Shown: positions 32,251-51,181, counted from the stretch's first letter. The stretch: DNA of 64,000 nucleotides from Myxococcota bacterium (GCA_965223415.1 OZ245002.1:2144001-2208000); one strand, 5' to 3'. Numbers and translations: made by a program. Notes: generated by a model from the sequence alone, not told the origin.

Positions 32251-32661
32251 TCACGCCTCGGGCTGGCGGAACTCCATGTCGTCCATGGTCCAGTAGCCGC
32301 GCAGGTTCGTGAGGAGCCCCTCGTCGTTGACGCGGTAGGTGAAGAGGCCCTTCACCACCGAGGTCATGCCGTTCTCGAAGCTCGTCGTCAATGTCATGAC
32401 GTGGGCCGACTCGCTGCCGGCGGTCCGGGACATCTCCGTGTCGATGCGGATCGTCGCCGGGGCCATCGTGTTGTCGTAGAAGTCCGACACCTCCTGCTTG
32501 CCGCGCAGGCCCTTGCCGGTGGGGTTGGTCGGAGCCACGCCGATCGGATCCTCGATGCAGACGTCGTCGGCCATCAGGGCGAGCCAGCCCTCCTTGTCCT
32601 TGGCCTGGACGCAGCGCCAGGAGCTGCGGGCGGCGATCATCGCGGGGTGGTCTTCGCTCAT
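32251..32661 (-). CDS. NTF2/ketosteroid-isomerase-like protein (Rv0760c-like)
   Basis: SSWRCVQAKDKEGWLALMADDVCIEDPIG..FTYRVN..LRGYW. Confidence 0.88.
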   Translation of the reverse strand: MSEDHPAMIAARSSWRCVQAKDKEGWLALMADDVCIEDPIGVAPTNPTGKGLRGKQEVSDFYDNTMAPATIRIDTEMSRTAGSESAHVMTLTTSFENGMTSVVKGLFTYRVNDEGLLTNLRGYWTMDDMEFRQPEA

Positions 32662-32684
32662 CGTCGTCTCCTCGATCTCGGTCG

Positions 32685-34730
32685 TCACAGGGCGCAGGCG
32701 GCGCGGGCCGCGTCGCTCGTGGCCTTCTGCACGAGGCCCAGGCCCGTGCAGTCTCCCACCGCCTGGGCCGGGACGCCGCGTTCCACCAGGGCATCGTAGA
32801 ACGTCGTGTCCGCCTGCACCGCACCTGCGAGGATCACGGTGTCGGCGAGGATCGGCACCTCGCCGCCGTCGGGGCGGGCGGCGATCAGGGCGCTGGGCGT
32901 GATGCGCGCCACGGCGAGCCCCGTGTTCACCGGCACGCCGGCGCGGTCGAGCCGCTCCAGGTGCTCCATCCTCCGCTTCGGCCCGACCTCCGGTGCCAGC
33001 TCGTCCCCGGGCTCGAGCACGGAGACCCGATGCCGGCGCGCGGCGAGGAACTCGGCCAGCTCGAGAGCGGCCAGATCGCCGCCGACGATCACGACGCGGC
33101 GGCCGAGGGGCGTGCCCAACCGGGTGGCGTGGCGCAGGACCGAGGGCCCGAGCAGGGGCTCGGCAAGGCCGGCGAGGCGGGAGCCCAGGCGCAGCCAGGG
33201 AGAGGCGGTGCCCTCGCCGGAGCCCGCCAGCAGGGCCCGCAGCCGCGCGCCGCTCCAGACGTGGGGCAGGTCGTCGCCGGGCACGGGCGGTGTCACGAGC
33301 CGTCCGCCGGTCGCGACGATCACGGCGTCCGCGCCGCGGCCGGCTACGGCGTCCGCGGTGGCCGGGGTGCCCAGCTCGATCCGCACGCCGAGTCGCTTCA
33401 CCTCGCGTTGCAGGAAGTCGAGGAAAGGCTGGTTCTCCGGGTGCACCGTGCAGGCCAGGCCGAAGGCGCCGCCCAGTCGGCGCGAGCGCTCGAGCAGGGT
33501 GACGTCGTGGCCGCGAGCCGCCGCGACCCGCGCCGCCTCCAGGCCACCGGGGCCGCCGCCGATCACGAGGACGCGCTTGGGCTCCGCGGCGGGTGTGAGG
33601 GAGAGCTCGCGCTCGCGACCGGTCAGCGGATTGACGGCGCAATCCATCGAGAGCCGGGTCTCCATCGCGTCGATGCAGTTCTGGCAGGAGATGCAGCGGC
33701 GGATCTCGGCGAGGCGTCCGGACCGGGCCTTGGCGGGGAGCTCCGGGTCGGCGAGCAGCGGGCGCCCCATCACGATGAAGTCCGCGCTTCCCTCGGAGAG
33801 GATGCGCTCTGCCCGGACCGGGTCGTGGATGCGGCCCACGACCAGGACCGGCACGTCCACCGCGCGCTTCACCGCGGCGGCCGCGGCGACGTTCAGGCCG
33901 TCCGGATCGTGGGCGCCGTTCACCATGCGCGTCACCAGGCGGTCGATCACGCCGCCGCTCACGTGGAAGGCGTCGACGCCGGCCTCCGCCAGCGCGGGGG
34001 CCAGCCGCGCCGTGTCGTCGCTCGGGCGGCCTCCGGCCACGCGCTCGAAGCCGGAGATGCGCAGGGTCAGCGGAAACTCGCGACCGGTCTCCCGCTTGAT
34101 GACGTCGACGGCCTCGACCACGGCGCGAATGCGCGTCTCCCGCGCCCGGGCCGAGTAGCCGTCCCGCCGCGCGTTGCGCCACGGCGTGACGTACGAGCCC
34201 AGCAGCATGTAGCCGTGGGCTGCGTGGAGCTCGATGCCGTCGTAGCCGGCCTCGCGCACGCGCACGGCGGCGGCGCGGTAGGCGTCGAGGATGGCCCGCC
34301 AGTCCGCTTCGCCGATCTCGCGGGAGGTGGTGCCGGTCAGGTACGACTGGATGGCCGAGGGCCCGAGCGCGTCGATGCCGTGGATCTCCGGGGCCAGGCC
34401 GTCCGGGCCCGCGTGGCAGAGCTGGGGCTGCACCGCGGCGCCCGCCGCGTGGATGCGATCGACCAGCTCCCGGTGGGGTGCCACCACCGCGTCGTCGCCG
34501 AAGTGGAGGGAGTTCGGCACCTCCTTGTGACGGCCGTCCACCGACGAGGCGCCCAGGGTGATCAGTCCGACACCGCCCCGCGCGCGGGCTTCCAAGTAGG
34601 CGATCGTGCGGGCCGAGGGCAGGCCGTCCGGCGTTCCGTACTGGTTCTCCATCGGCGACATGACGAGCCGGTTCCGGAGGGCCAGGCGGCCGATCCGACC
34701 CGGCCGGAAGAGCTCGGTCAGCGCCGCCAA
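32685..34730 (-). CDS. NADH:flavin oxidoreductase (OYE/FadH/BaiCD-H family, 4Fe-4S)
   Basis: NRLVMSPM, ARGGVGLI, ELHAAHGY, CISCQNC..C, IGGGPGGLEAA. Confidence 0.92.
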   Translation of the reverse strand: MAALTELFRPGRIGRLALRNRLVMSPMENQYGTPDGLPSARTIAYLEARARGGVGLITLGASSVDGRHKEVPNSLHFGDDAVVAPHRELVDRIHAAGAAVQPQLCHAGPDGLAPEIHGIDALGPSAIQSYLTGTTSREIGEADWRAILDAYRAAAVRVREAGYDGIELHAAHGYMLLGSYVTPWRNARRDGYSARARETRIRAVVEAVDVIKRETGREFPLTLRISGFERVAGGRPSDDTARLAPALAEAGVDAFHVSGGVIDRLVTRMVNGAHDPDGLNVAAAAAVKRAVDVPVLVVGRIHDPVRAERILSEGSADFIVMGRPLLADPELPAKARSGRLAEIRRCISCQNCIDAMETRLSMDCAVNPLTGRERELSLTPAAEPKRVLVIGGGPGGLEAARVAAARGHDVTLLERSRRLGGAFGLACTVHPENQPFLDFLQREVKRLGVRIELGTPATADAVAGRGADAVIVATGGRLVTPPVPGDDLPHVWSGARLRALLAGSGEGTASPWLRLGSRLAGLAEPLLGPSVLRHATRLGTPLGRRVVIVGGDLAALELAEFLAARRHRVSVLEPGDELAPEVGPKRRMEHLERLDRAGVPVNTGLAVARITPSALIAARPDGGEVPILADTVILAGAVQADTTFYDALVERGVPAQAVGDCTGLGLVQKATSDAARAACAL

Positions 34731-34733: not shown

Positions 34734-36191
34734 TCAGCCCCAGGGCGGCGTCGCGGCGGCCGCGCGCCCGGCCAGCCGGCCGAAGAAGCTCGCGTCGCCG
34801 ATCGACAGACCGCTCGCATAGGTGCGCCCCTCCCGCGGCAGGCCCGCGGTGCAGCGGCCCGCCGCATAGAGGCCGGCGATCGCCGTGCCATCCGCGTCGA
34901 GCACCTCACCGGTGGGCGTCACGCGCAGGCCGCCGAGGGTGAAGACGCCGAAGATCGAGTTGTCCGTGCTGCAATCGAGGGCGCCGAAGGGCGGCCGGGC
35001 GAGCGGGCGCAGGTACTTGGGCCGCTTGTGGTAGAAGGGATCGCGACCGTCCGCCGCCGCCGCGTTGTAGGCGGCCATGGTGGCGACGAGGCTCCCGGGC
35101 GGCAGCCCGAGGGCCTTCTCCAGGGCTTCGAAGCTCTCCTCCACTGCCGCGATCTTGTGAAAGGACTGGGTCTGGCCGTGGATCTCGTCGTCCACGATCA
35201 GGAAGGCCCGGCCCTCGGCCTTGAAGATGATCGCGTCGCTGGTACGGCCCAGGTAGGCGTCCTCGTTGACGAAGCGCTGCCCCCGGCCGTCGACCAGCAC
35301 GCCCATGAGGTGCGACTCCGGCGGATAGTAGGCATTCAGCACGAGACCTTCGCTCATGTTGATCGCCTCGCCCCCTGCGGCCTGGCCCATCAGGATGCCC
35401 GAGCCGTCGTCTCCGTCGGTGGCGACCGGGTAGTTGCACTGGAGCAGGTAGGGCGCGTGGCGCGCCACCATCTCCCGGTTCTTGACGAAGCCGCCGGTGG
35501 CGAGCACGACGCCCCGGCTCGCGCGGACGAAGATGCGCTGGCGCTCGCGCAGGGCGACGATGCCGCCGACGCGGCCGGCCCCGTCCACCACCAGTCGCTC
35601 GCCGCGGCACTCGTTCACGACCGTCGCGCCGGCGGAGAGCGTCGCTGCCAACACCGCCTCCATCAGCACGCCGCCCGCCTCACCCTCCCGGGCGGGCTTG
35701 TGGCCGCGGGGAACCGGTCGCGCCTCGTCGCAGAACGGCCAGGCCTCCTCGTTGCCGCTGAACGAGAGGCACTCGTCGGTGAAGGGGTGGGTCGTCTTCG
35801 CCGCGTGGAAGCTCTCGTTGAAGGGGACGCCCAGGTCGACGAACCACTGGAAGTGCTCGAGGCTGTGCTCGCAGTAGAGGCGCACCCGCTCGGCGTCGGC
35901 CTGCTCGCCCGCTGCCAGGCGCACGTAGGCCTCCATGTCCTCGACGTTGTCCTCGAAGCCGCAGGCCTTCTGGATCGGGGTGCCGCCGCCGAAGTAGGTG
36001 ATTCCGGTCGAGAGCGCGGTGGCGCCTCCGCCGCGGGTCATTCGCTCGAGCACGAGCACCGAGGCGCCGGCTCGCGCCGCCTCGATCGCTGCCGCGCCGC
36101 CGGCCACGCCCTGCCCCAGCACGACAACCTCCGCCTCGAGGTCCCAGGCGGGCACCTCACCCAGGCGGAAGGGGCGCGTGGTGGCGTCCAC
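34734..36191 (-). CDS. FAD-dependent oxidoreductase, 3-ketosteroid dehydrogenase-like
   Basis: WDLEAEVVVLGQGVAG, GGATALSTG..YFGGGT, VVLATGGF, RFVNED, FTLGGL, GLYAAG, YASGLSIGD. Confidence 0.85.
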   Translation of the reverse strand: MDATTRPFRLGEVPAWDLEAEVVVLGQGVAGGAAAIEAARAGASVLVLERMTRGGGATALSTGITYFGGGTPIQKACGFEDNVEDMEAYVRLAAGEQADAERVRLYCEHSLEHFQWFVDLGVPFNESFHAAKTTHPFTDECLSFSGNEEAWPFCDEARPVPRGHKPAREGEAGGVLMEAVLAATLSAGATVVNECRGERLVVDGAGRVGGIVALRERQRIFVRASRGVVLATGGFVKNREMVARHAPYLLQCNYPVATDGDDGSGILMGQAAGGEAINMSEGLVLNAYYPPESHLMGVLVDGRGQRFVNEDAYLGRTSDAIIFKAEGRAFLIVDDEIHGQTQSFHKIAAVEESFEALEKALGLPPGSLVATMAAYNAAAADGRDPFYHKRPKYLRPLARPPFGALDCSTDNSIFGVFTLGGLRVTPTGEVLDADGTAIAGLYAAGRCTAGLPREGRTYASGLSIGDASFFGRLAGRAAAATPPWG

Positions 36192-36195: not shown

Positions 36196-36921
36196 TCAGC
36201 GCACCTTCTTGCTGTACTTGCCCGCCTCGTGGTTGACGATCTCGGCATCCGTGTCCCGTTCGAGGCCGTGCTCGTGCACGTAGTCTCCTGGGGCAGCGGC
36301 GTAGTCCACGCGCTCTTTGCCCATGCGGATCTTCCAGCGGCAGTGAGGCTCGTCCGGGCTCGCTCGCGGCGGCAGCTTCACCGGGTCGATGCGGATCTTC
36401 TCGTTCCAGCGCGCCGCGCCGTGGCGGAAGCCGAACAGCTCGAGGTGGCCGCAGATCTTGTCGCACATGTACGCCATGACCTCGGGGCCTTCCCGCTCGC
36501 CGGTCTCGGGCACGTCGCACTGGGGTGTGCGCATCTCCCACCCGCCTTCGCCGGCCGGCTCGAAGCGCAGCGTCATGCGCGTCGACATGGCGGGGAGGCA
36601 CTGCCACACCTTCATCGCGGTCGTCTCGGCATCCTCCTCGGCGAAGCCCATCAGGCTCGAGATCAGTTCGTTCTCGTGGTCGCCGGCGCCGCCCTCGCCG
36701 AACCACACCTGATGATGGATCTCGTCCGCCACCTCCGCGCCCAGGCGCTTGGCGACTTCGCGGTACCAGAGCCGATTCACGGTTCCGTAGATCGAGCCGC
36801 CCACCTCGACGAGCTTCATCAGCCCTTCCCTTGAGAAGTCCGAGAGGTGGAGATCGGGCTGGAAGGGCCCGCTGTAGTCGTCGAGCTCGAGGGAGGGCCG
36901 GTCAGGCTTCTGGCTCTTCAT
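36196..36921 (-). CDS. Hypothetical protein (DUF6125/V4R-like, conserved Cys)
   Basis: DDYSGPFQPDLHLSDFSREGL, PQC, MCDKIC, PHCRW; coupled to the CoA ligase stop. Confidence 0.7.
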   Translation of the reverse strand: MKSQKPDRPSLELDDYSGPFQPDLHLSDFSREGLMKLVEVGGSIYGTVNRLWYREVAKRLGAEVADEIHHQVWFGEGGAGDHENELISSLMGFAEEDAETTAMKVWQCLPAMSTRMTLRFEPAGEGGWEMRTPQCDVPETGEREGPEVMAYMCDKICGHLELFGFRHGAARWNEKIRIDPVKLPPRASPDEPHCRWKIRMGKERVDYAAAPGDYVHEHGLERDTDAEIVNHEAGKYSKKVR

Positions 36922-38528
36922 CAGCGCTCGACCCGGAAGCCCGCGGCCTGGCCGTCCCAGGTCGCGTCGGTCACGCCGCGCTCGCGCAGCTTGAACTTCT
37001 GGACGCGGCCCGTCGGTGTCTGGGGCAGCTCGTCGACCAGCTCGATGTAGCGCGGCACGAAGAAGTAGGGCGCCGTGTCGTTGACGAAGCGGGCCAGCTC
37101 CTCCTCGGTCGCCTGCTCGCTCGGCTTCAGGATCACGCAGGCCTTGATCTCGGCCTCGGCGGCGAGCTGCTCTGACGTGACGCCGTGGACCGCGCACTGG
37201 GCCACCGCCGGGTGGGCCGACAGCGCCGCCTCCACCGCGAACGAGGAGATGTTCCGTCCCTTGAAGCGGATGAAGTCCGCCTTGCGGTCGACGAAGAAGT
37301 AGTACCCGTCCTCGTCCTGCCGGCCGAGATCGCCGGTGTGGTACCAGAGATTGCTCCAGGACCTGACCGTCGCCTCCGGGTTGCGCCAGTAGCCGTTGAA
37401 GATGGCGTAGGGCTCGTTCGGCCGGATGCAGAACTCGCCGGGCTCACCGACCGGCACCGGGCGATCATCATCGTCGAGCAGCGTCACCTCGATGCCCTCG
37501 ATCGGTTCGCCCACCGAGTTCGGCGGGTAGTCCACGTCGAGCTTGCGGTTCATGAGCGCCATCACCTCGCTCTGTCCGTAGCCCTGGGGGATGTCCTCGA
37601 GGCCGAAGCGCTCCTTGAAGACCGGCACCAGGTGTTCCGGGGTCGGCACGAAGCCGGCCACCCGCACCGGGTTGTCCGCGTCGTCGTCGCGCTCCTCTGC
37701 GTTCAGCAGGAACATGTGCATGGCGCCGAGGGTGAAGACCATGGTGGCGCCGTAGTGCCGCGTGCGATTCCAGAAGTCGCGGGCGGAGAAGGCCGGGTCC
37801 ATGGCGCAGGGCAGCCCCGCCACCAGCGCTCGGTAGACATTCGCCACCCAGGCAGCGGACTGGTACATGGGCAGGCAGTTGTAGATGACGTCGCCCTCGC
37901 GGGCGCCGGCGTTCTCGGCGCCGTGGACCGCGGCGCGGATCCAGACGTTGTGGCTCTGCATCACGCCCTTGGACCGGCCGGTGGTGCCGGAGGTCCAGAG
38001 CACGGCGGCGGTCTCGCCGTAGCTGCGGTCCGCGTCGTCGGGCTCACCGTCCGGCTTCGCCCAGAGCTCCTCAAGGGGAAGCTGGGGCACGCCCAGGTCC
38101 ACGCCGCCCGCGTCGCCCCGCACGTACACGCGCTCGAAGGGGTGCTCGCTCAGCTCGGCGACCCGCTCGAGCAGCGCGCCGTCGGCCACCAGCACCTTGG
38201 CGGCGCCGTCTTCGAAGGACTCGGCCAGCCAGCGCCCCTTGTAGTCGACGTTGGTGGGTACCCAGATGCCGCCGAGCTTGTTCAGGCCGAGGGTCGACCA
38301 GACCCAGTCCGGGCAGGTGTTCATCAGGAAGGAGACCGTGTCGCCCGGCCCCACGCCGGCCTCCCGGAAGCCCCGGGCGCTGGCGTTGGCCAGCTCGTTC
38401 ACGCGGCCGTAGGAGAAGTGCTCCTCGTCCCAGACGATGAAGTCGGCGTCGGGCCGATCCTCGGCCTGGCGGCGCAGGCAGCGGCCGAGCAGGCGATCCC
38501 GGGGGTCGGTGAGGTCGAGCAGGTTCAT
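36921..38528 (-). CDS. Acyl-CoA ligase (CaiC-like AMP-binding enzyme)
   Basis: WTSGTTGRSKGV, GYGQSE, YHTGDLG, FVDRKAD, PQTPTGRVQK. Confidence 0.93.
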   Translation of the reverse strand: MNLLDLTDPRDRLLGRCLRRQAEDRPDADFIVWDEEHFSYGRVNELANASARGFREAGVGPGDTVSFLMNTCPDWVWSTLGLNKLGGIWVPTNVDYKGRWLAESFEDGAAKVLVADGALLERVAELSEHPFERVYVRGDAGGVDLGVPQLPLEELWAKPDGEPDDADRSYGETAAVLWTSGTTGRSKGVMQSHNVWIRAAVHGAENAGAREGDVIYNCLPMYQSAAWVANVYRALVAGLPCAMDPAFSARDFWNRTRHYGATMVFTLGAMHMFLLNAEERDDDADNPVRVAGFVPTPEHLVPVFKERFGLEDIPQGYGQSEVMALMNRKLDVDYPPNSVGEPIEGIEVTLLDDDDRPVPVGEPGEFCIRPNEPYAIFNGYWRNPEATVRSWSNLWYHTGDLGRQDEDGYYFFVDRKADFIRFKGRNISSFAVEAALSAHPAVAQCAVHGVTSEQLAAEAEIKACVILKPSEQATEEELARFVNDTAPYFFVPRYIELVDELPQTPTGRVQKFKLRERGVTDATWDGQAAGFRVER

Positions 38529-40339: not shown

Positions 40340-40370
40340 GGCATCCTCCTACCCGGGGAGCCTACCGCAT

Positions 40371-40391: not shown

Positions 40392-40426
40392 GATGACGTA
40401 GGGTGCCCGCACAACGAGGAGACCCC

Positions 40427-44093: not shown

Positions 44094-44095
44094 TC

Positions 44096-45694
44096 ATGGA
44101 CCTTCCGAAGCTCCCCGGCAGCTGGCCGCTGCTCGGCCACCTGCTCGAGCTGCGGCGAGACCCGATCGGGTTGATGGAGCGGGTGCGCGCCGAGTGCGGC
44201 GAGATCGGCGAGTTCAACCTCGCGGGTCACAAGATCGCGCTGCTCACCGGCGAGGAGGCCCAGGAGGCCTTCTTCCGCGCACCGGACGAGCAGCTCGACC
44301 AGGCGGCGGCCTATCCGTTCATGAAGCCGATCTTCGGCGAGGGGGTCGTTTTCGACGCCACGCCGGAGCAGCGCAAGCAGGCCATGCGCAACCAGTCGCT
44401 TCGCGACTCGTTCATGCGGGGCCACGCCGAGACGATCGCTGCCGAGGTCGAGCGCATGACGGAGGGCTGGGGCGAGCAAGGCGAGGTGGACGCGCTCTCC
44501 TTCTTTGCCGAGCTCACCCTCTACACGTCGTCGACCTGCCTGATCGGCCCCCAGTTCCGCGAGGAGCTCGACGCCTCCTACTCTCCGATCTTCATGGACC
44601 TGGAGCGGGGAACGGACGCCCTGGCCTACGTGAACCCCTACCTGCCCATCCCCGCGCTCCGGGCACGCGACCGTGCGCGCAAGGAGCTCGTCGCGAAGAT
44701 CGAGGCGATCTTCGTGCGCCGCGAGCAGGACGACGAGACCTACACGGACCTCTTCCAGGTGCTCCACGGCCTGCACGACGAGAACGGCATGCGCCGCTAC
44801 AGCGACGACCAGATCACCGGCATGTTCATCTCGATGATGTTCGCCGGGCACCACACCACGTCGGTGACATCGTCCCGGGGGATGCTGGAGCTGCTGATGC
44901 ATCCGGAGTGGATGCAGAAGGTCGTGGCGGAGCTCGACGAGATCTACGCCGACGGCCGCGACGTCTCCTACCAGGCTCTGCGGGAGATCCCGCTGCTCGA
45001 GTGCGCCCTCAAGGAGGCGCTGCGCCTGCACCCGCCGCTCATCATCCTGATGCGCAAGGTGATGCACGACTTCGAGTACAAGGGCTGGACGGTCCCGGCG
45101 GGCCACCTGGCCGCGGCATCTCCCGCGGTCTCGAACCGCATGCCCGAGCACTTCCCGGACCCGGAGCGCTACGAGCCCGAACGCTACCTGCCCGGCCGGG
45201 AAGAGGACAAGAAGAGCTTCGCCTGGCTCCCCTTCGGGGCCGGTCGCCACCGCTGCGTCGGGGCGGCCTTCGCGATGATGCAGCTGAAGGCGATCTTCTC
45301 GATCCTGCTGCGCCGCTTCGAGTTCGAGCTGGCCCAGCCGCCGGAGACCTACGCCAACGACCTCTCGAAGATGGTCGTCGCCGTGAAGCAGCCCTGTCGG
45401 GTGCGCTACCGGCGACGGCACGCTGCCACGTCCGTCGCGACGACGGCCCCGAAAGCGGCCGAGCCGCGCGCCGGCGAAGGAGCCTTCCGCGTCTGCGTGG
45501 ACCTCGACCTCTGTCAGGGCCACGCGGTGTGCATCAACGAGGCTCCCGAGGTCTTCGACATCGAGCGCAACGAAGACGGCGAGGACAAGGTCGTCCTGCG
45601 CATGCAGGAGCCTTCGCCGGAGCTTCGCGAGAAGGCCGATGCGGCCGTCCGCCACTGCCCGACCCGGGCCCTTTCCATCGAGGAGACGAACTGA
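44096..45694 (+). CDS. cyp51: Sterol 14-alpha-demethylase CYP51 fused to a C-terminal 3Fe-4S ferredoxin
   Basis: LDQAAAYPFMKPIFGEGVVFDA, MMFAGHHTTS, LKEALRLHPPLIILMR, PFGAGRHRCVG; Ala/Thr-rich linker; DLDLCQGHAVC..CPTRALSI. Confidence 0.93.
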   Translation: MDLPKLPGSWPLLGHLLELRRDPIGLMERVRAECGEIGEFNLAGHKIALLTGEEAQEAFFRAPDEQLDQAAAYPFMKPIFGEGVVFDATPEQRKQAMRNQSLRDSFMRGHAETIAAEVERMTEGWGEQGEVDALSFFAELTLYTSSTCLIGPQFREELDASYSPIFMDLERGTDALAYVNPYLPIPALRARDRARKELVAKIEAIFVRREQDDETYTDLFQVLHGLHDENGMRRYSDDQITGMFISMMFAGHHTTSVTSSRGMLELLMHPEWMQKVVAELDEIYADGRDVSYQALREIPLLECALKEALRLHPPLIILMRKVMHDFEYKGWTVPAGHLAAASPAVSNRMPEHFPDPERYEPERYLPGREEDKKSFAWLPFGAGRHRCVGAAFAMMQLKAIFSILLRRFEFELAQPPETYANDLSKMVVAVKQPCRVRYRRRHAATSVATTAPKAAEPRAGEGAFRVCVDLDLCQGHAVCINEAPEVFDIERNEDGEDKVVLRMQEPSPELREKADAAVRHCPTRALSIEETN

Positions 45695-46254
45695 TGCCTG
45701 CCTTCCCCCGAGACGAAATGGAAGAGATGGTGCGCCGCTGGGTGGCCGCCAACGACGAGGCCGGCCGCACTGGCGACTGGTCGAAGATGTCCGAGTTCTT
45801 CACCGACGACGCGGTCTACAGCTGGACCACCGGCCCGAACTGGGACTTCGTGGCCAAGGGCAAGCAGCAGATCCACGAGTGGGCCTTCGGCAGCGAGATG
45901 GCCGGCCTCGAGCACTGGACCTACCCCTACGTGCGCACGCTCATCGACGACCAGAAGGGCGAGTTCATCGGCATTTGGCGGCAGATCGCTCCGGTGAAGG
46001 ATCCGGAAGGGGTGAACTACGAGATCCGCGGCACCGGCGGCTCCTGGTTCCGCTACGCGGGCGACTTCAAGTGGGGCTGGCAGCGTGACTTCTTCGACCA
46101 CGCCTGCGCCGGCGCGGTATTCGGTGCCATGGCCAAGAACGGCCAGCTCACCGAGAAGATGCTCGAGCGCATGAAGAAGGGCTCGGACATGCCCGGCTGG
46201 ACCCACAAGAGCGAGTTCGACTGGTTCGCGACCATCGCCGACATCGAGGCGTAA
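45694..46254 (+). CDS. NTF2-family protein (Rv0762c-like)
   Basis: FPRDEMEEMVRRW..EMAGLEHWTYPY..GGSWFRYAGDFKWGWQRDFFD. Confidence 0.88.
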   Translation: MPAFPRDEMEEMVRRWVAANDEAGRTGDWSKMSEFFTDDAVYSWTTGPNWDFVAKGKQQIHEWAFGSEMAGLEHWTYPYVRTLIDDQKGEFIGIWRQIAPVKDPEGVNYEIRGTGGSWFRYAGDFKWGWQRDFFDHACAGAVFGAMAKNGQLTEKMLERMKKGSDMPGWTHKSEFDWFATIADIEA

Positions 46255-46258
46255 CCGG

Positions 46259-47506
46259 GTGCCGCCGCGCCGGCTCACCGACCTCTCGCGCCAGGAGCTC
46301 TGCCACCTCGGCCGGGAGTATCTGCTGATCGGGCACCTCCAGGACCGCGTCGGGCTTCCTCTCGCGACCCAGCTCGTGGGCGAGGAGGCCCAGGCCCAGC
46401 TCTCCATCGACGAGTGGATGGGCGCCAGCCCGATCTACTCGGTGCGGGTGCAGCGGGCGCTGGGCTTCGAGGGCAACGACGTCGGCACGGTCTTCAAGAA
46501 CCTGCAGCTCGACATCGGCGCGCCCCATCAGTTCATGGACTTCCAGTTCCGGCTCGACCGTCCCGAGTACGGCGAGTTCTGGTTGCCCCACTGCGGGGCG
46601 CTGATGGACGTTGAGCCCTTCGGCGAGAAGCGGGTGCAGCGGATGTGCCACGACATCGAGGACCCGACCTTCGATGCCACGGCCGCCGCGACCCATCCGC
46701 ACATGAAGATGCGCCCGATCCACCGGCCGCCCCGCGTGCCCGCCGGGCGCTACCCGCACTGCCGCTGGTCGGTCTTCATCGACGAGAGCGCGGAGGCCGT
46801 GCCCTACGAGCAGCACCCGAACCTGCCGCGCATGCAGGCCTCGAGGATCGCGAACGTCGCGATCGTCGTGCCGGGGGGCGACCTCGAGCCCGGCGGATGG
46901 GACGACTACAGCGGGCCCTTCGATCCGGGCTTCCAGCTCGAGGACCTGGGGCACCGGGCGCTGCTGACCGCCTGCCAGGAGACCGCGACCCAGATCCACC
47001 TGCTGGCGCGCTCGTTCCTGCTGAACGTGGACCAACGCCACGGCGAGGAGGCCGCGCGAGAGCTCGGCCGGCGGCAGTGGACCGGCGCCGCCGCGATCGG
47101 TGCGCTGCGGCTGAAGCGCGCGCTCGGGATCGGGGAGGACACGGCGGCGATCGCCCAGGTGTTCGAGCTGCATCCCCACTTCCACCCGCGCAGCTACGTG
47201 GACCTGCGGGTCGAGGTGACCGATGAGGCGACCCTCCGCCTCGAGATCGGCGACGGCCCGGCCCTTGAAGAGGCCGACGCGCACTCCTGGTTCGGCGGCC
47301 TCGGCGACGAGCCGCATCCCGCTCTCGCCGCGATTGCCGCTGCGGTGAACCCGAAGGCGCGCTGCCGCGCGGCCGGCGAGCTGGCCTGGGAGGTCGTGGT
47401 CGACCCGGACGCCGAGCCCCTGGGCGAGCCGCCCGAGCTCAAGATCGCGCGGATCAGCGCGGGCGTGGACTTCGCCCTGGAGCAGCGCCGGGTGCTGCGC
47501 GCCTAG
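46259..47506 (+). CDS. Hypothetical two-domain protein related to 36196-36921
   Basis: IDEWMGASPIYS, PHCGAL, MCHDIEDPTFDATA, PHCRW, DDYSGPFDPGFQLEDL. Confidence 0.75.
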   Translation: MPPRRLTDLSRQELCHLGREYLLIGHLQDRVGLPLATQLVGEEAQAQLSIDEWMGASPIYSVRVQRALGFEGNDVGTVFKNLQLDIGAPHQFMDFQFRLDRPEYGEFWLPHCGALMDVEPFGEKRVQRMCHDIEDPTFDATAAATHPHMKMRPIHRPPRVPAGRYPHCRWSVFIDESAEAVPYEQHPNLPRMQASRIANVAIVVPGGDLEPGGWDDYSGPFDPGFQLEDLGHRALLTACQETATQIHLLARSFLLNVDQRHGEEAARELGRRQWTGAAAIGALRLKRALGIGEDTAAIAQVFELHPHFHPRSYVDLRVEVTDEATLRLEIGDGPALEEADAHSWFGGLGDEPHPALAAIAAAVNPKARCRAAGELAWEVVVDPDAEPLGEPPELKIARISAGVDFALEQRRVLRA

Positions 47507-47508
47507 CC

Positions 47509-48384
47509 GTGGCAGGGCTCCTCGCCGGCAAGGCCGCGATCGTCGCCGGCGGGAGCCGTGGGATCGGCCGTGCGGTGTCCCTGGCGCTCGCGGCGGAGGG
47601 CGCCGCCGTCGTCGTGAACGGCCGGAGCCCGGAGCCGCCGGAGGAGGTAGCGGCTGCCATCCGCGACGCCGGCGGGCGCGCGCGGGCGCACCCCGGCTCC
47701 GTCGCGGACTTCGAGCTGGCCGGCGAGCTGGTCGCGGCCTGCGCGGCCGACTTCGGCGCCGTCGACGTGCTCGTGAACTGCGCGGGGATCCCCGAGCCCG
47801 ACGACACCTCGATCCTCGACCTCGCCCCGGAGGCCTGGCGCGACGTGATCGACGTGCACCTCACGGGCACCTTCCATACCTGCCGCCACGCCGCGCCGCC
47901 CATGGCCGCCCAGGGCGGAGGCGTGATCGTGAACACGAGCTCCCATGCCTACCTGGGCCGCTACGGCGGCAGCGCCTATGCCGCGGGCAAGGGCGGTACG
48001 AACAGCCTCACCTTTGCCATCGCGGCCGAGCTGCGGGACCGCGGTGTGCGCGCCAACGCCGTGTGCCCGGGCGCCCGCACGCGGCTCAACGAAGGCCCCG
48101 GTTACGAGCGGAAGATCGCCGATCTCCACGCGCGCGGGATCCTCGACGACATCACCCGTGACGCCTCACTCTCGCCGGCCGCTCCCGAGTACGTGGGCCC
48201 GATCTACGTCTTCCTCGCGAGCGTGCTCTCCGAAGGCATCACCGGCCGGGTCTTCTCCGCGGCCGGCGGCTACGTCGGTGTGCACACGGAGGGCAGCGAA
48301 GCGCTGCTGGCCTACCGCGACGCCTCCGCCGGCCCCTGGCCCGTCGCCGAGCTGGCGGGGAAGATCCGCGAAGGCCTGCCCTGA
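47509..48384 (+). CDS. SDR oxidoreductase
   Basis: AGGSRGIG, LVNCAG, YAAGK, NAVCPGARTRL. Confidence 0.92.
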   Translation: MAGLLAGKAAIVAGGSRGIGRAVSLALAAEGAAVVVNGRSPEPPEEVAAAIRDAGGRARAHPGSVADFELAGELVAACAADFGAVDVLVNCAGIPEPDDTSILDLAPEAWRDVIDVHLTGTFHTCRHAAPPMAAQGGGVIVNTSSHAYLGRYGGSAYAAGKGGTNSLTFAIAAELRDRGVRANAVCPGARTRLNEGPGYERKIADLHARGILDDITRDASLSPAAPEYVGPIYVFLASVLSEGITGRVFSAAGGYVGVHTEGSEALLAYRDASAGPWPVAELAGKIREGLP

Positions 48385-48386: not shown

Positions 48387-49238
48387 TCAGATCCCCGGAT
48401 CCCGCCCGCACCGCTCGGCCACTGCATAGCGTTCGACCCCGTGCGCGGCTTCCGCATCGACGTCGGAGATCACCGTCCATCCAGTCCCCTCGACGTATCG
48501 GGGCAGGTCCTCGCTTCGGACGGTGGACCTCCATGGCTCCCCGATGAGCCGAACCATCGTCGAGAGGATCCTGCGTTCACCCGGAATCGCGTGCGTGAAC
48601 ACGAGACGACTTCCGGGTGACGTGCAGGCGGCCGCTTCCTGCAGCAGCCCTCGTACCTCGTCGTCCGTCAGGTACTGGAGGAGGCCCTCCGCCAATGTCA
48701 CCGAGGGCCTGGACGCATCCCAGCGGCCGTCTTCCGAGAGCACCTTCGAAAGGGCCTGCTCGCCGAGATCCGCTGCGATCTGCACCATGTTCTCCGGTCG
48801 GCCGATCTCGGCCACTCCCTTCGCCTTGGCCGCAGACGTGGTGGGATGATCGACCTCGAAGAAGCGCACGTCGCCGTGCTTCGGCGCGAGCCTCAGGCAG
48901 AGCGTGTCGAAGCCGGCGCCCAACACCAGCACCTGTCGCGCGCCCTCGCCGATGGCGCGCTCCACCTGCTGCTGCATGAAGATCTTCCGGTGGCCGAAGC
49001 CCTCCCACTGCCCCGGCATCATGCGGTCCTGGATCTCGTAAACCCGCACCATCCACGGCTTCCTGGACGCGCGCATCAGGCGTGGGCCGTAGCCCGGCGA
49101 CCCCGAGGCCAGGAGCAGACGCTCGGTGAGCTCCACGAGGCCGGGAGGGAGCCGTTTCGCCCAGTCGTCCTTGACGCTCAGCGTGATCATGCCGAGCGCG
49201 ACCTTGAGAGCCGTCTGGCTGATCCGCCCCTGCTTCAC
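48387..49238 (-). CDS. SAM-dependent methyltransferase (LCM/Ppm1-like)
   Basis: QVLVLGAGFDT, FFEVDHP, AEGLLQYL; GTGA overlap with the Rieske gene stop. Confidence 0.88.
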   Translation of the reverse strand: MKQGRISQTALKVALGMITLSVKDDWAKRLPPGLVELTERLLLASGSPGYGPRLMRASRKPWMVRVYEIQDRMMPGQWEGFGHRKIFMQQQVERAIGEGARQVLVLGAGFDTLCLRLAPKHGDVRFFEVDHPTTSAAKAKGVAEIGRPENMVQIAADLGEQALSKVLSEDGRWDASRPSVTLAEGLLQYLTDDEVRGLLQEAAACTSPGSRLVFTHAIPGERRILSTMVRLIGEPWRSTVRSEDLPRYVEGTGWTVISDVDAEAAHGVERYAVAERCGRDPGI

Positions 49239-50317
49239 GACGTCATCCGATCCAGCCACCACTGATTGAACTGCCAGATCGGCTTCTCCAGCGGGCAGAG
49301 CGGGCCGCTCTCGAAGGAGCGCGCACCGAGGCCGGACCAGGTCGTCTCGCAGGCTTCGATGTCCTGGAGGTGGACCGTCCGTGTGAAGGCCTGCAGGCCC
49401 TCCACGCCTTCCCGCTCGGCGGGATCGTCGAGCACCTCACGCGGGAAACAGGTGAAGACGCGAAGGGTGAAGCGGTCGTACGTCTCGGGCAGGAGCTGGT
49501 ACCAGGCCATCGAGTGCTCGCTCGGCGCGAACAGGTGGAACGGGAACACCGTCGCTGCGACGAGCCCCCCGGCGGTTGTCTCCGCCGGGTCGTTGCCTTC
49601 GACGTCGGGCATGAACAGGACGGAGTAGAGGCCTTCGCTGTCCGGCGTGTGGGAGTGGGCGCCCGGGAGCATCGGCTCGAGGGTGTCGCGGTGGGTCCCG
49701 ATGTGGTGGTAGGCCTCCATGAAGTTGTCGGTGAGGACCTTCCAGTTGAACGGAGAATCGAAGGTGGCGGTCTCCACCGCGACGAGATCGGCCATCCGGT
49801 AGGGAGCGAGCAAGGCCGAGAGCGGTGCGAGGCGCGGACCCAGGGGCTCGGCGTTGTCGTCGAAGTTGACGAAGATCCAGCCCTCCCAGATCTCGCTTCG
49901 AATCTCGGGCAGTCGGCACCCGGTCCGGTCGAAATCGGCGCCGTCCATGTGGGGTGCGCCGATGAGCTGGCCGTCGAGCTGGAAGGTCCAGCGGTGATAG
50001 GGGCACTGGAAGGAGCGCGCGTTGCCCGCGCCCTGGACGAGCTCGGCCGCGCGGTGGCGGCACACTCGGGAGAGCACGCGCACCACGCCGTCCTTGCCGC
50101 GCACGACGACGAGCAGGTCGCCGAGCAGGTCGAGTGCCATGTAGTCGCCGGGCTCGGGAACCTGGTCCACGCGTCCAGCGCATAGCCACTCGCGAGAGAA
50201 GAGCTGCTCGGTCTCACGCTGGTAGAGCTCCGGCGAGGTGAAGGCTTCGGCGGGAAGGGTGGAGGCCTCGGACAGGGGGCGCCGCGCGCGGGCTACACCT
50301 TCAGCGTCCAGGCCCAC
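49235..50317 (-). CDS. Rieske non-heme iron oxygenase alpha subunit (choline-monooxygenase-like)
   Basis: CRHR..CPYHRW Rieske motif, NWKVLTDNFMEAYHHIGTH, QDIEACE. Confidence 0.93.
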   Translation of the reverse strand: MGLDAEGVARARRPLSEASTLPAEAFTSPELYQRETEQLFSREWLCAGRVDQVPEPGDYMALDLLGDLLVVVRGKDGVVRVLSRVCRHRAAELVQGAGNARSFQCPYHRWTFQLDGQLIGAPHMDGADFDRTGCRLPEIRSEIWEGWIFVNFDDNAEPLGPRLAPLSALLAPYRMADLVAVETATFDSPFNWKVLTDNFMEAYHHIGTHRDTLEPMLPGAHSHTPDSEGLYSVLFMPDVEGNDPAETTAGGLVAATVFPFHLFAPSEHSMAWYQLLPETYDRFTLRVFTCFPREVLDDPAEREGVEGLQAFTRTVHLQDIEACETTWSGLGARSFESGPLCPLEKPIWQFNQWWLDRMTS

Positions 50318-51181
50318 CTAGCGCCGCCCCTCGTCCTTCACGCGGTAGATGCGCGCCATGTCCTGGGAGACCAGGCCGGTCACCGGCAAGGCGAGATCGC
50401 ACTCGCGCGCCAGCTCGAGGGCGTGCGCCAGGTCCTTTTCCGCGGTGTGCATCTGCAGGCGGTTGAAGCTCTGGAACCCCTCGCTATCGACGGCCTCCGG
50501 CGGCGCCCGGTGGAGCACCAGGAAGCGCTCCTGCATGTCGGTGAGCTGGCCGTTCGAGCGGACGGAGGCGAGAAAGACCTCCGGGTCGAGCCCGGAAGCC
50601 ACCGCCAGCTTGTACGACTCGCTGGCCGCGGCCCACTGGATGTAGGTCATGGTGTTCACCGCCAGCTTCAGCTTGGCGCCGCTTCCAAGAGGGCCGGCGT
50701 GCACGATGGCCTTGGAGCTGGCGTCGAGGACGGGGCGCGCCTTCTCCATCGACGCGTCGTCGCCGCCCACCAGGAAGGTCAGCTCGCCGGCCGCCGCGCC
50801 GTGGGCGCCGCCGGTCACGCAGGCATCGATCAGCGTGCAGCCCCCCGCCTCCGCTGCAGCGGCCATCTCCTCGATCGTCGCCGGCAGCACCGTGCTGTGG
50901 ACGGCGATCACGGCGCCGGGGGCGAGCCCCTCGAGGGCGCCGTTCTCGCCCGCGAGCACTGTGCGGACGTGGTCGTCCGTCGGCACGCAGACGCAGAGCA
51001 CGTCGGCACGCGCGCCCACCTCCTTCGGAGTCGCCGCCTCCTTGGCGCCTCCCGCGACGAGCTCCTGCACCTTTGCCTCGTCGAGATCGCAGACCGTGGT
51101 CTCGAATCCAGCCGGGGCCAGATGCGAGGCCATCGGCTTGCCCATGTCGCCCAGTCCGATGTAGCCCACGCGTATCGCCAT
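50318..51181 (-). CDS. NAD(P)-dependent 3-hydroxyisobutyrate dehydrogenase family protein (Rv0770-like)
   Basis: GYIGLGDMGKPMA, HSTV, DACVTGG, KLKLAVN, KDLAHALELA. Confidence 0.92.
   Translation of the reverse strand: MAIRVGYIGLGDMGKPMASHLAPAGFETTVCDLDEAKVQELVAGGAKEAATPKEVGARADVLCVCVPTDDHVRTVLAGENGALEGLAPGAVIAVHSTVLPATIEEMAAAAEAGGCTLIDACVTGGAHGAAAGELTFLVGGDDASMEKARPVLDASSKAIVHAGPLGSGAKLKLAVNTMTYIQWAAASESYKLAVASGLDPEVFLASVRSNGQLTDMQERFLVLHRAPPEAVDSEGFQSFNRLQMHTAEKDLAHALELARECDLALPVTGLVSQDMARIYRVKDEGRR

Follow-up and report, generated by a model that had tools for sequence, protein, structure and literature searches.

Why most of the bacteria that carry CYP51, and that make no sterols, keep this enzyme has been a long-standing question since the Mycobacterium tuberculosis enzyme. 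So far, the neighbours of CYP51 have been taken for an antioxidant "hpoR operon" or have been left without an assigned function. The question is addressed here from a set of 18 genes localized at positions 32251-51181 of a DNA stretch of 64,000 nucleotides (the window), which represents positions 2144001-2208000 of a single-contig genome of 5.83 Mb (OZ245002.1; completeness rating 97.34%) and has a G+C content of 71%. The genes were called from third-position GC, from domain matches (Pfam and NCBIfam) and from a scan of start codons, and they form three tight operons (Table 1). The left arm is carried by the minus strand (40339 to 32251) and contains seven genes, encoding a TetR regulator (TetR1), a cytochrome P450 (P450b), an acyl-CoA ligase, a small protein (unk207), a FAD flavoprotein, an OYE/FadH-type flavoenzyme and an NTF2-family protein (NTF2a). 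The right arm is carried by the plus strand (40427 to 48384) and contains eight genes, encoding a short-chain dehydrogenase/reductase (SDR1), an aldehyde dehydrogenase (ALDH), SDR2, a second regulator (TetR2), a CYP51-ferredoxin fusion (CYP51fx), a second NTF2-family protein (NTF2b), the two-domain protein unk415 and SDR3. The third operon (minus strand, 51181 to 48387) encodes a HIBADH-like enzyme, a Rieske oxygenase and an LCM-type methyltransferase.

Comparison with related loci supports the view that this set is a cross-phylum counterpart of the actinobacterial cyp51 cluster. On balance, and with a little more belief than doubt, we read it as a TetR-repressed set for the uptake and reworking of exogenous 14alpha-methyl sterols (of the lanosterol, cycloartenol or obtusifoliol type) in an organism that makes no sterols itself. 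A first-pass annotation of the same DNA had named eight of these genes, and all of them start where it placed them and display the domain families that it gave (Pfam, NCBIfam and start-codon scan). The two divergent arms with their TetR genes are real, TetR1 heading the left arm and TetR2 lying within the right one. The extra genes that it listed (CoA ligase, FAD flavoprotein, OYE/FadH-type reductase and two unknown proteins) are also present, and the two unknowns are related, if weakly, unk207 sharing 27% identity over 107 residues with the N-terminal half of unk415 (pairwise E 4e-6). SDR3, the methyltransferase and the Rieske oxygenase come in addition to its list.

The CYP51 and 8,14-Bsr-type core pair

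The genome encodes a single CYP51fx, for which the best solved relatives are the mycobacterial CYP51B1 (PDB 7tef, E 2.5e-168) and Rv0764c (1e9x, E 3.7e-168), matched over residues 3-442, and the printed alignment reveals that the segments AYPFMxPIFGEGVVFDA, FAGHHT and PFGAGRHRCVGAAFA are common to the three proteins. The sequence has what is expected of a CYP51, namely a full-length P450 domain, the heme-binding motif FGAGRHRCxG and the B'-helix and I-helix segments, the last two of which we partly presume to be a CYP51 signature. The fusion with a ferredoxin is seen in the alignment of residues 4-528 with residues 10-532 of chain 6mcw (551 amino acids), ferredoxin included, a chain that we take to be the CYP51-ferredoxin fusion of Methylococcus capsulatus. 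For the other part, the two signature segments are drawn from PMC7947880, where more than 50 natural CYP51-ferredoxin fusions are reported. CYP51fx is accordingly annotated, as a prediction from its sequence, as a sterol 14alpha-demethylase fused to a C-terminal ferredoxin.

The start codon of NTF2b overlaps the stop codon of CYP51fx. The enzyme 8,14-Bsr is an NTF2-family protein that converts the 8,14-diene formed by CYP51 into the 8(14)-ene (Lee, Giner & Welander, J Bacteriol 2026, PMC13277303; preprint 10.64898/2026.02.26.708318), a reaction obtained in Escherichia coli with the homologs of M. capsulatus, M. tuberculosis and an uncultured Sandaracinus (PMC13277303). The same paper locates 8,14-Bsr chiefly in Methylococcaceae, Mycobacteriales and uncultured Myxococcota, describes its co-localisation and co-evolution with ferredoxin-linked CYP51, and indicates by mutagenesis that Y43 and D133 are needed and that Y37 and Y78 must be aromatic, Y37F being tolerated. 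The residues F36, Y42, Y77, Y79, D132 and D135 of NTF2b correspond to the published Y37, Y43, Y78, Y80, D133 and D136 of the M. capsulatus enzyme with a constant offset of -1, the match being made by position and spacing and not by sequence alignment. Among 68 sequences (the window protein and 67 CYP51-adjacent homologs), Y42, Y77, Y79, D132 and D135 are invariant, and position 36 is occupied by Y in 61 sequences and by F in seven. Against the solved structures, no PDB chain was matched by NTF2b at E<=1. By its fold family, by the spacing of its pocket residues and by its co-localisation with a ferredoxin-linked CYP51, NTF2b fits the description of an 8,14-Bsr, the diene-to-8(14)-ene activity being that of its homologs.

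Conservation of the cluster across phyla

The search for related loci matched 600 stretches, of which 588 encode relatives, and the best 80 were analysed (44 labelled Actinomycetota, 21 labelled Myxococcota and 15 with another label or none; loci are designated below by L numbers). Homologs were counted within 10 kb of CYP51 in the 42 loci of at least 20 kb (full-flank set). NTF2b is found in 37 of these 42 loci and lies directly 3' of CYP51 in 37 of them; it is followed in frequency by a P450 (35 loci), SDR2 (34), unk415 (29), the HIBADH-like enzyme (26), the ALDH (22) and SDR1 (19). TetR1 is found in nine loci (none from Actinomycetota), NTF2a in five, the flavoprotein in two and the OYE-type enzyme in one. 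The CoA ligase, unk207, the methyltransferase and the Rieske oxygenase, as well as the FA_hydroxylase, PhyH, CrtI-like, MFS and NUDIX genes that flank the cluster, were detected in none of the 42.

The gene order is kept in Acidimicrobiia, Rhodococcus, Nocardia and metagenome-assembled genomes (MAGs) labelled Myxococcota. It is P450-SDR2-CYP51fx-NTF2b-ALDH-SDR1-HIBADH-unk415 in Acidimicrobiia, the same sets are arranged as two divergent arms in Rhodococcus, nine genes form a single run in L038 and L055, and SDR2 is directly beside CYP51 in other phyla. In L016, CYP51fx and unk415 are followed by the flavoprotein (75% identity), the OYE-type enzyme (60%) and NTF2a (68%), all three being reciprocal best hits of the window proteins. 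SDR3 has orthologs (57-60%) in only four of the 80 loci (L012, L013, L064 and L065). A CYP51fx match at E<=1e-50 is present in 28 of 40 relatives of the window's genome, some of which have two or three copies, and the closest copies (79-81%) belong to other genera of the family, where the enlarged arrangement of the window is not shared.

Orthology was examined by reciprocal best hits with three loci of Mycobacteriales (L062, L064 and L046), two of Acidimicrobiia (L052 and L075) and three Myxococcota-type loci. The comparison covered syntenic Mycobacteriales loci, and the likeness to M. tuberculosis and M. smegmatis is taken from papers, PDB chains and the name of one NCBIfam model. For seven proteins (CYP51fx, NTF2b, unk415, SDR1, SDR2, the HIBADH-like enzyme and NTF2a), each homolog detected in the five actinobacterial loci proved to be a reciprocal best hit: NTF2a with the Rhodococcus loci L062 and L064 at 35-36% identity, SDR1 with the Rhodococcus and Acidimicrobiia loci at 57-64%, SDR2 in five loci out of five and the HIBADH-like enzyme in all seven loci where a homolog was found (35-61%, Myxococcota-type loci included). 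For the ALDH, the actinobacterial loci gave a near tie between the window protein and a paralog of the same genome at 2,352,943; in the tree, the window protein belongs to a clade of seven rows (support 100) with the cluster-linked ALDHs of Myxococcota-type loci.

The P450 at 38538 had been equated with cyp123, an identity that is not borne out. The reciprocal test fails in the six loci that have a P450 in the cyp123 position (L062, L064, L046, L052, L075 and L038), since these P450s hit back to a paralog at 2,356,5xx of the same genome (55-57%), P450b being second or third (41-43%); P450b is reciprocal only with the second P450 of L030. In a FastTree phylogeny of 118 P450s (2 from the window, 36 own paralogs and 80 from the loci; support values are SH-like only), the paralog at 2,356,570 belongs to a clade of cluster-linked P450s (52 rows, support 100), and P450b to a sister clade (5 rows, support 98), together with the second P450 found 3' of NTF2b in L020, L021 and L030. 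The tree and the reciprocal hits rule out P450b as the cyp123 ortholog, a role that falls to the paralog 172 kb away, and assign P450b to a sister subfamily of the cyp123-position P450s.

The claim that the cluster corresponds to the mycobacterial cyp51 locus thus stands for the seven reciprocal proteins and for the shared gene order, fails for P450b and for the CoA ligase (no ortholog in the loci of the reciprocal test nor in the 80 CYP51 loci) and is left at a near tie for the ALDH. Concerning the individual M. tuberculosis genes that had been proposed, Rv0764c and Rv0760c have direct PDB matches, and the match to the Rv0768 model is under its cut-off. The correspondences with Rv0762c, Rv0765c, Rv0769 and Rv0770 (the last for the HIBADH-like gene) are an assumption of the first-pass annotation that we share. 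In the literature, CYP123A1 is Rv0766c, CYP51B1 is Rv0764c and the ferredoxin is Rv0763c (PMC6469627), and a putative operon Rv0767c-Rv0763c has been described (PMC7947880).

Some labels of the loci are at odds with their sequences. The CYP51-cluster contigs of L084 and L088 (labelled as a Bordetella parapertussis MAG) and of L053 (a Nitrosopumilus MAG) group with Actinomycetota or Myxococcota, those of L017, L024, L025, L029 and L054 (Spirochaetales MAGs) group with sequences of one or the other of these phyla, and the P450 of L088 is identical to that of L080, labelled Actinomycetota. These labels probably reflect mis-binned contigs.

The accessory enzymes

In the left arm, NTF2a has as best PDB matches 5z3r ("Steroid delta-isomerase", E 1.6e-44) and 2a15 ("Rv0760c", E 2e-44), and is a predicted ketosteroid isomerase (KSI)-like protein, homologous to Rv0760c. 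The OYE-type enzyme matches the NCBIfam models mycofact_OYE_2 (392.9 bits) and BaiCD (361.9 bits), both below cut-off, and the PDB chains 6qkg ("NCR", E 1.6e-73) and 1ps9 (2,4-dienoyl-CoA reductase, E 3.3e-66). Provided that 6qkg is 2-naphthoyl-CoA reductase, as we presume, the substrates of the two relatives have C=C bonds in conjugation with a CoA thioester, and it is these bonds that are reduced; this is consistent with the adjacent CoA ligase. The ligase itself matches PRK06155 with 438.3 bits, below the cut-off of 722.

The FAD flavoprotein aligns over its full length with PDB 4at0 (residues 2-479 with 23-507, E 8.8e-115, 387.5 bits), far above flavocytochrome c (1.2e-34) and the delta1-KstD chains (E 7.8e-19 for 4c3x, or weaker), and it exceeds the cut-off of NCBIfam NF005510 (620.6 bits for a cut-off of 481). 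It is a predicted 3-ketosteroid delta4-(5alpha)-dehydrogenase, so that the "ketosteroid-dehydrogenase-like" gene of the first-pass annotation is of this type and not a KstD. The identity with delta1-KstD was excluded by the PDB ranking and by the score of the KstD model. P450b has CYP125MRCA (E 1.6e-72) and CYP130 as best PDB matches, and is placed by them among the class-I P450s of the CYP125/130/124/142 neighbourhood. No Pfam or NCBIfam match was found for unk207 at 1e-5; its faint matches are to ATC_hydrolase (E 0.021) and DUF6125 (E 0.16), and its Atlas leads reach 0.89 to clusters of the same two names. For unk207 and unk415 together, the Atlas searches gave only clusters of "hypothetical protein" and DUF6125/ATC_hydrolase leads below 0.9.

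In the right arm, SDR1 exceeds the cut-off of NF005853 (363.8 bits for 303), and SDR2 falls just short of that of NF005854 (258.1 bits for 260), its solved relatives being generic. The ALDH matches TIGR04284 (aldehy_Rv0768) with 677.4 bits (E 1e-203), below the cut-off of 775. The protein unk415 is internally duplicated, with two domains and the invariant residues Cys112, Cys130, Cys168 and Trp170, and 702 cluster representatives were found at E<=1e-3. Its AlphaFold model has a predicted local distance difference test (pLDDT) value of 93.1. The whole-protein model gave only weak fold matches, to H-NOX, the MopR/PoxR sensor, V4R and Bet3 ligand-binding domains: Foldseek returned none at E<=0.001 (best 0.058), and the best VIA-align Z of 6.6 is in the range that the tool calls non-specific. 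A ligand binding of the H-NOX/V4R/MopR type would be a lead only.

In the third operon, the HIBADH-like protein matches the tartronate-semialdehyde reductase and HIBADH models of NCBIfam below their cut-offs. The methyltransferase exceeds the cut-off of TIGR00027 (117.9 bits for 93.55), and its gene overlaps the Rieske gene by 28 nucleotides. The Rieske protein matches GbcA with 137.3 bits and the PDB chain of CntA at E 1e-39, and is classed as of the carnitine/glycine-betaine monooxygenase type, not KshA-like. Its identity with SdmA was ruled out by a score of 24.8 bits and by the likeness to CntA. These two proteins are specific to the lineage, and their membership in the pathway is uncertain.

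Sterol-synthesis markers in the genome

The first-pass annotation had seen neither squalene epoxidase nor oxidosqualene cyclase in the window, and this holds. In the whole single-contig genome, the squalene epoxidase family (PF08491) has no match, the ERG4_ERG24 family reaches at best 23 bits (cut-off 27) and SdmA 78.7 bits (cut-off 600), and no canonical oxidosqualene cyclase was found. The absence of squalene epoxidase, of a canonical oxidosqualene cyclase and of ERG24 makes scavenged 14-methyl sterols the likely substrate, as had been proposed.

The only cyclase-family gene of the genome is atypical. It is localized at 4,881,027-4,882,943 (L100:9048-10943), directly downstream of an S-adenosylmethionine (SAM)-dependent methyltransferase gene, and carries the motif DCDTTA. 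The canonical motifs are DxDD(TA) for squalene-hopene cyclases and xxDCTA for oxidosqualene cyclases. No squalene-synthase, epoxidase or hopanoid genes were found near it, and it is possibly a cyclase of methylated terpenoids. The genome is also unusually rich in P450s and ligases for a Gram-negative bacterium, with at least 36 further paralogs of P450b at E<1e-40 (alignments of at least 330 amino acids) and 41 matches to an acyl-CoA-ligase model.

From these data, it is extremely unlikely that the cluster is a part of de novo sterol biosynthesis by the organism. Such a role could be suggested by sterol producers in related orders, by CYP51 in 28 of the 40 relatives and by the one cyclase-family gene; it is opposed by the lack of any squalene epoxidase match in a 97.3%-complete single contig, by scores of ERG24 and SdmA under cut-off, and by a cyclase devoid of both canonical motifs and of the expected neighbours.

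The substrates could also be other than sterols, CYP51fx having been recruited to the demethylation of hopanoid-type or plant-type triterpenoids, of the product of the organism's own atypical cyclase, or of hydrocarbons. We give this only a small probability. It would agree with the presence in the genome of no fewer than 37 other P450 paralogs at E<1e-40 (36 own rows and P450c, a further P450 of the window), with the large lipid-catabolic islands, with the class-II cyclase-family gene beside its methyltransferase and with the proposal that some bacterial CYP51s may have shifted to non-sterol lipid pathways (Lamb et al., MBE 2021, PMC7947880). The B'-helix/B'C-loop and the I-helix AGHHT segments are nevertheless almost identical to those of the sterol-demethylating Rv0764c, the 8,14-Bsr residues of NTF2b are intact, and the cyclase gene lies at a distance of 2.7 Mb, without the operator described below in front of it.

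A probable TetR1 operator at two loci

The divergent promoter between the two arms contains the sequence ATTTACATTGCAAGCGTTATGGAGAT, at 40369-40394, in which an imperfect inverted repeat ATTTACAT-N10-ATGGAGAT overlaps -35/-10-like hexamers (TTGCAA, 17 nucleotides, TAGGGT). An inverted-repeat search of 40320-40420 at default-type settings found none, the repeat having emerged only from the comparison between loci: the window sequence can be aligned with the promoters of L019, L020, L021 and L030, and L020 and L021 have a perfect repeat ATTTACAT-N10-ATGTAAAT over the -35/-10-like hexamers. The operator 10-mer occurs once in the window (0.01 expected) and in 13 of 112 loci, which are 11 related non-actinobacterial CYP51 loci and two loci of the genome itself. 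TetR1 orthologs (47-60%) are found in 15 of the 80 loci, none labelled Actinomycetota, and TetR2 orthologs (45-74%) in six. The exact 10-mer is present in 10 of the 15 loci that have a TetR1 ortholog and in one of the 65 that have none; this last locus is a contig of 7.2 kb, one end of which is 327 bases from the motif.

Genome-wide, the 10-mer has two sites, for 0.29 expected from base composition, and the 8-mer ATTTACAT has also two, for 5.6 expected. These sites, at 2,184,369 (window) and 2,356,519, are both in divergent promoters of paralogous P450/ALDH sets. The second, 172 kb from the window site, separates a minus-strand operon (CMD-family protein, CoA ligase and a second Rv0768-type ALDH) from a plus-strand operon (cyp123-type P450 and SDR). 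TetR1 probably binds ATTTACAT-N10-ATGkAAAT in the divergent promoter and the same repeat at the second locus. The pathway would then be a two-locus regulon, and so simple an operator joining two distant loci would give a handle for a search of the inducer.

The second locus belongs to a large island of lipid/steroid-type catabolism (genome positions 2,318,001-2,358,521; L097, L098 and L099). The island encodes three P450s, a second delta4-(5alpha)-type flavoprotein, acyl-CoA dehydrogenases, enoyl-CoA and MaoC hydratases, two family-III CoA transferases, a KshA-type Rieske protein whose gene adjoins a PhyH gene, and a sulfatase; it includes the operator-linked CMD/CoA ligase/ALDH and cyp123-type P450/SDR operons, and is followed by a Mu-transposase-like gene. 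Two further intergenic sequences were observed in the cluster. The 31-nucleotide gap before TetR2 (within 43410-43455) has ACCGCATT in common with the main promoter and a TAGGAT -10-like hexamer, and is possibly an internal promoter. The divergent region between the HIBADH-like and FA_hydroxylase genes (51183-51216) contains a 13-nucleotide imperfect inverted repeat, GGCCGACGATACC / GGTAGGATCGGCC.

The regulatory data bear on the reading of the cluster as a redox or oxidative-stress system like the hpoR operon, in which the P450s and dehydrogenases would detoxify lipid aldehydes derived from peroxides, the sterol chemistry being a side activity in vitro. In M. smegmatis, the genes Ms5855-5865, which HpoR represses, are induced by cyclic di-GMP (c-di-GMP) and by H2O2, and H2O2 resistance depends on them (PMC5909442), and the window has GGDEF and HDOD genes at 1207-4575, though some 36 kb away. 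The HpoR operator (G/A)GACANNTGTCC is, however, absent from the promoters of the cluster, with four one-mismatch matches elsewhere in the window for 5.47 expected, and the regulator is a different TetR with a different operator. CYP51 and 8,14-Bsr moreover co-evolve and act sequentially on a sterol, and the steroid-specific homologs (of 4at0 and of KSI) are attached to them. A stress function is in our opinion quite improbable.

A proposed pathway for 14-methyl sterols

In the proposed use of exogenous sterols, CYP51fx would remove the 14alpha-methyl group to give the 8,14-diene, and NTF2b would reduce and rearrange the diene into the 8(14)-ene, two steps demonstrated for close homologs. We infer the steps beyond CYP51 and 8,14-Bsr from family membership and gene linkage. 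The P450 would hydroxylate a C-4 methyl group, SDR1 would oxidize the alcohol to the aldehyde and the Rv0768-type ALDH the aldehyde to the 4-carboxylate. The HIBADH-like dehydrogenase (or SDR2) would then oxidize C-3 of the resulting beta-hydroxy acid, with loss of CO2, and the delta4-(5alpha)-dehydrogenase homolog may desaturate the 5alpha-3-ketosteroid so formed. NTF2a, the FadH/OYE-type reductase and the CoA ligase could act on the positions of double bonds and on a CoA-activated acid.

Several data led to this scheme. That two distant phyla keep the accessory set together with CYP51 and 8,14-Bsr speaks for a single common pathway. A 5alpha-3-ketosteroid intermediate, and with it C-4 demethylation, is suggested by the delta4-(5alpha)-dehydrogenase homolog and the KSI-like protein that are attached in this lineage; the link with steroids recurs in L016, where the delta4-dehydrogenase/OYE/NTF2a trio is again beside CYP51. 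A 4-carboxy-3-hydroxy sterol is a beta-hydroxy acid, so that the conserved set of P450, SDR, ALDH and beta-hydroxyacid dehydrogenase matches the chemistry of C-4 demethylation. Steroids are hydroxylated in vitro by the CYP123 of M. abscessus (PMC12799577). A C19 8(14)-steroid is formed from lanosterol by a Mycobacterium (Discussion of preprint 10.64898/2026.02.26.708318; Wang 1995 as cited in PMC5962712), which implies as yet unnamed enzymes of C-4 demethylation in CYP51-bearing degraders. In our literature search, which cannot show that none exists, no paper was found that gives functions to the SDR, ALDH or HIBADH-like neighbours.

The more specific proposal, that P450, SDR1, ALDH, HIBADH-like enzyme and SDR2, perhaps with unk415 as a sterol-binding helper, constitute a third route of sterol C-4 demethylation, non-homologous to ERG25/26/27 and to SdmAB, is to be taken as tentative and rather doubtful. 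If true, it would account for the C19 4-ene-3-one-type 8(14) steroid formed from lanosterol by a Mycobacterium, give a physiological job to the mycobacterial cyp51 locus and name the enzymes of lanosterol catabolism in bacteria generally.

A number of results weigh against the use of exogenous sterols as the function of the cluster, apart from the fact that most of its steps are deduced as stated above. The families of the SDRs, the ALDH and the HIBADH-like protein are broad, the gene content around CYP51 is fluid between loci, and most of the cluster is lacking in the 10 kb around the closest CYP51fx (80%, L011). The conserved P450 of the cluster is a P450 other than P450b. The CoA ligase, unk207, the methyltransferase and the Rieske oxygenase were found in none of the 80 other loci, so that a part of the "expansion" may consist of unrelated neighbours. 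Experiments in M. smegmatis have linked the homologous cluster with H2O2 resistance and c-di-GMP and not with sterols (PMC5909442), and the M. tuberculosis gene tested as 8,14-Bsr is unnamed in the main text of PMC13277303. Finally, the best genome matches are of 93.5 bits for delta1-KstD (cut-off 788), 81.5 for the HsaC type (366) and 60.3 for the HsaD type (462), the last two models being biphenyl-pathway equivalogs that may under-score steroid enzymes.

The first-pass annotation had the pathway feed ring degradation. The steroid-catabolism markers of the genome are mixed, two KshA_C proteins and one FadD3-family ligase being over cut-off and no match of the delta1-KstD, HsaC or HsaD type exceeding its own, and with canonical A/B-ring cleavage genes not found over cut-off, ring degradation is not secured. 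The cluster could also serve for salvage and not for catabolism, imported 14-methyl sterols being turned into 8(14)-unsaturated, partly demethylated sterols or steroids for membranes or signalling, with the rings unbroken. The only steps demonstrated for homologs (14-demethylation and 8(14)-ene formation) are indeed of a biosynthetic type, and transport proteins (an RND/MFP efflux pair and an MFS transporter) are encoded on the flanks of the cluster, in addition to the missing ring-opening genes. The delta4-(5alpha)-dehydrogenase homolog, the KSI-like protein, the CoA ligase and the FadH-type reductase are, on the contrary, typical of catabolism, and the genome has a FadD3-family ligase over cut-off (719.9 bits for 657) and two KshA-type proteins (KshA_C over cut-off twice). 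We regard salvage as unlikely, and retain the inducible reworking of exogenous 14-methyl sterols as the favoured function.

Gene layout and neighbouring genes

The gaps or overlaps between genes do not exceed 31 nucleotides in the right arm and 23 nucleotides in the left arm, except for 101 nucleotides preceding unk207.

Table 1. Positions of the genes and of the operator-like repeat of the cluster in the window.
Feature	Position	Strand	Evidence and remarks
NTF2a	32251-32661	-	Last left-arm gene; Pfam SnoaL_2/NTF2
OYE/FadH-type Fe-S flavoenzyme	32685-34730	-	Pfam Oxidored_FMN + Pyr_redox_2
FAD flavoprotein, predicted 3-ketosteroid delta4-(5alpha)-dehydrogenase homolog	34734-36191	-	PDB 4at0, NCBIfam NF005510
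unk207, small protein without Pfam/NCBIfam family	36196-36819	-	
Acyl-CoA ligase	36921-38528	-	Pfam AMP-binding + AMP-binding_C
P450b	38538-39728	-	Pfam p450
TetR1	39725-40339	-	First left-arm gene; Pfam TetR_N
Operator-like imperfect inverted repeat	40369-40394	.	Sequence of divergent promoter, cross-locus alignment
SDR1	40427-41185	+	First right-arm gene; Pfam adh_short_C2; ATG at 40427 with GAGGAG ribosome-binding site is the better start
Rv0768 (aldA)-type aldehyde dehydrogenase	41187-42656	+	Pfam Aldedh 480 bits
SDR2	42653-43417	+	Pfam adh_short
TetR2	43449-44093	+	Inside right arm, just 5' of CYP51fx; Pfam TetR_N
CYP51fx, predicted CYP51-ferredoxin fusion	44096-45694	+	Pfam p450 231 bits + Fer4_13/Fer4_15
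NTF2b, 186 amino acids	45694-46254	+	Pfam SnoaL_4 30 bits (cut-off 24)
unk415, conserved two-domain protein	46259-47506	+	No Pfam match
SDR3	47509-48384	+	Last right-arm gene; Pfam adh_short
LCM/TIGR00027-type SAM-dependent methyltransferase	48387-49262	-	Pfam LCM 96.5 bits
Rieske non-heme-iron oxygenase alpha subunit	49235-50317	-	Pfam Rieske + Ring_hydroxyl_A
HIBADH-like beta-hydroxyacid dehydrogenase	50318-51181	-	Pfam NAD_binding_2 + NAD_binding_11

On the NTF2a side of the cluster, a plus-strand set at 28242-32247 encodes a TetR regulator (TetR0), a flavoprotein of the CrtI/phytoene-desaturase family, an MFS transporter and a NUDIX hydrolase, and ends 4 nucleotides from NTF2a. A palindrome of 13+13 nucleotides, TTGACAGAATAAA/TTTATTGCGTCAA, is localized just 5' of TetR0. 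None of this set was linked to CYP51 in the 80 loci. It is preceded, at 25721-28006 on the plus strand, by the gene of P450c, which has a long N-terminal extension of its open reading frame, and by a glutathione S-transferase gene; in the tree, P450c groups with paralogs of its own genome and not with the P450s of the cluster.

On the other side, a FA_hydroxylase gene of the sterol desaturase (ERG3-ERG25) superfamily, at 51221-52149 on the plus strand, is divergent from the HIBADH-like gene. It displays a one-base frame slip near 51645-51655, inside the domain of the His boxes, and the same sequence is found without gaps in the contigs of four runs, which come from two samples of a single study (possibly the source). 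The region 52146-61888, further downstream, continues the theme of lipid metabolism with a PhyH dioxygenase, an RND pump and its MFP (52952-57210), a TetR, several SDRs, an ABM monooxygenase, an enoyl-CoA hydratase and a SnoaL protein. At about 57793-59550, two overlapping open reading frames of opposite strands both have SDR matches.

Myxococcota are usually non-flagellated. The organism had been described as flagellated, and the window contains fliF, fliG, fliH, fliI, fliJ, fliK, flgD and flgE at 10926-19955 (plus strand); the closest relatives by CYP51 and by the neighbouring genes are nonetheless MAGs labelled Myxococcota.

Comparison with known systems

The system had been called undescribed, which is too strong, as the Cyp51/ferredoxin/8,14-Bsr trio (PMC13277303) and the hpoR operon (PMC5909442) are both in print. 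The window shares with the former a ferredoxin-linked CYP51 followed by an NTF2-family protein, with the six mutagenised residues at a constant offset, and the pair is already published in Mycobacteriales and in uncultured Myxococcota, the label of the closest relatives of the window. It differs in its surroundings: the main text of that paper covers three components ("aldehyde", "dehydrogenase" and "cyp123" have no occurrence in it), whereas the pair is here included in an operon of eight genes (with SDRs, ALDH, TetR and an unknown protein) that faces a steroid-type arm of seven genes.

With the hpoR operon (Li et al., NAR 2018, PMC5909442), the cluster has in common a P450, two SDRs, an ALDH and an "oxidoreductase" linked to CYP51; the genes Ms5855-5865 encode an oxidoreductase, two SDRs, an ALDH and three P450s, and HpoR is Rv0767c (PMC5909442). 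Syntenic counterparts, which are reciprocal best hits, are found in the Mycobacteriales loci. The differences are that the HpoR palindrome is absent in the window and is replaced by the TetR1 repeat ATTTACAT-N10-ATGTAAAT, that the ferredoxin is fused to CYP51, that the cyp123-type P450, a second ALDH and a CMD protein are at a second locus, and that a delta4-(5alpha)-dehydrogenase homolog, a FadH-type reductase and a CoA ligase are added.

The flavoprotein resembles the 3-ketosteroid delta4-(5alpha)-dehydrogenase of structures 4at0/4at2 over its full length, and differs from it by its presence in a CYP51-linked operon. We presume that the crystallized enzyme comes from Rhodococcus jostii RHA1. 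The C-4 demethylation of eukaryotes by ERG25, ERG26 and ERG27 is an established scheme, and the logic proposed here would be the same as that of these enzymes and of SdmA/SdmB, a methyl group being oxidized to alcohol, aldehyde and acid, and the 3-hydroxyl group being oxidized with decarboxylation. The genes are different: the best SdmA match of the genome has 78.7 bits where 600 are required, that of the cluster's Rieske protein 24.8 bits, and the one neighbouring gene of the ERG25 superfamily, the FA_hydroxylase gene, is frameshifted. SdmAB is mentioned in the legend of Fig. 1 of the preprint 10.64898/2026.02.26.708318.

The left arm finally resembles the bai system, whose enzymes remodel the bile-acid nucleus, by its CoA ligase, its OYE/FadH-type flavoenzyme (361.9 bits with BaiCD) and its NTF2-fold protein. 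The bai set comprises the CoA ligase BaiB, the flavoenzymes BaiCD and BaiH, and the NTF2-fold dehydratase BaiE. The BaiCD score is far below the cut-off of 825, the best solved relatives of the flavoenzyme are 6qkg ("NCR") and FadH, and NTF2a is like KSI and Rv0760c. Altogether, the CYP51/8,14-Bsr core pair and the mycobacterial cluster were already known, and the new elements are the reciprocal-best-hit and synteny evidence for the accessory set across phyla, the attached enzymes of the steroid nucleus, the probable TetR1 operator and the arrangement in two loci.

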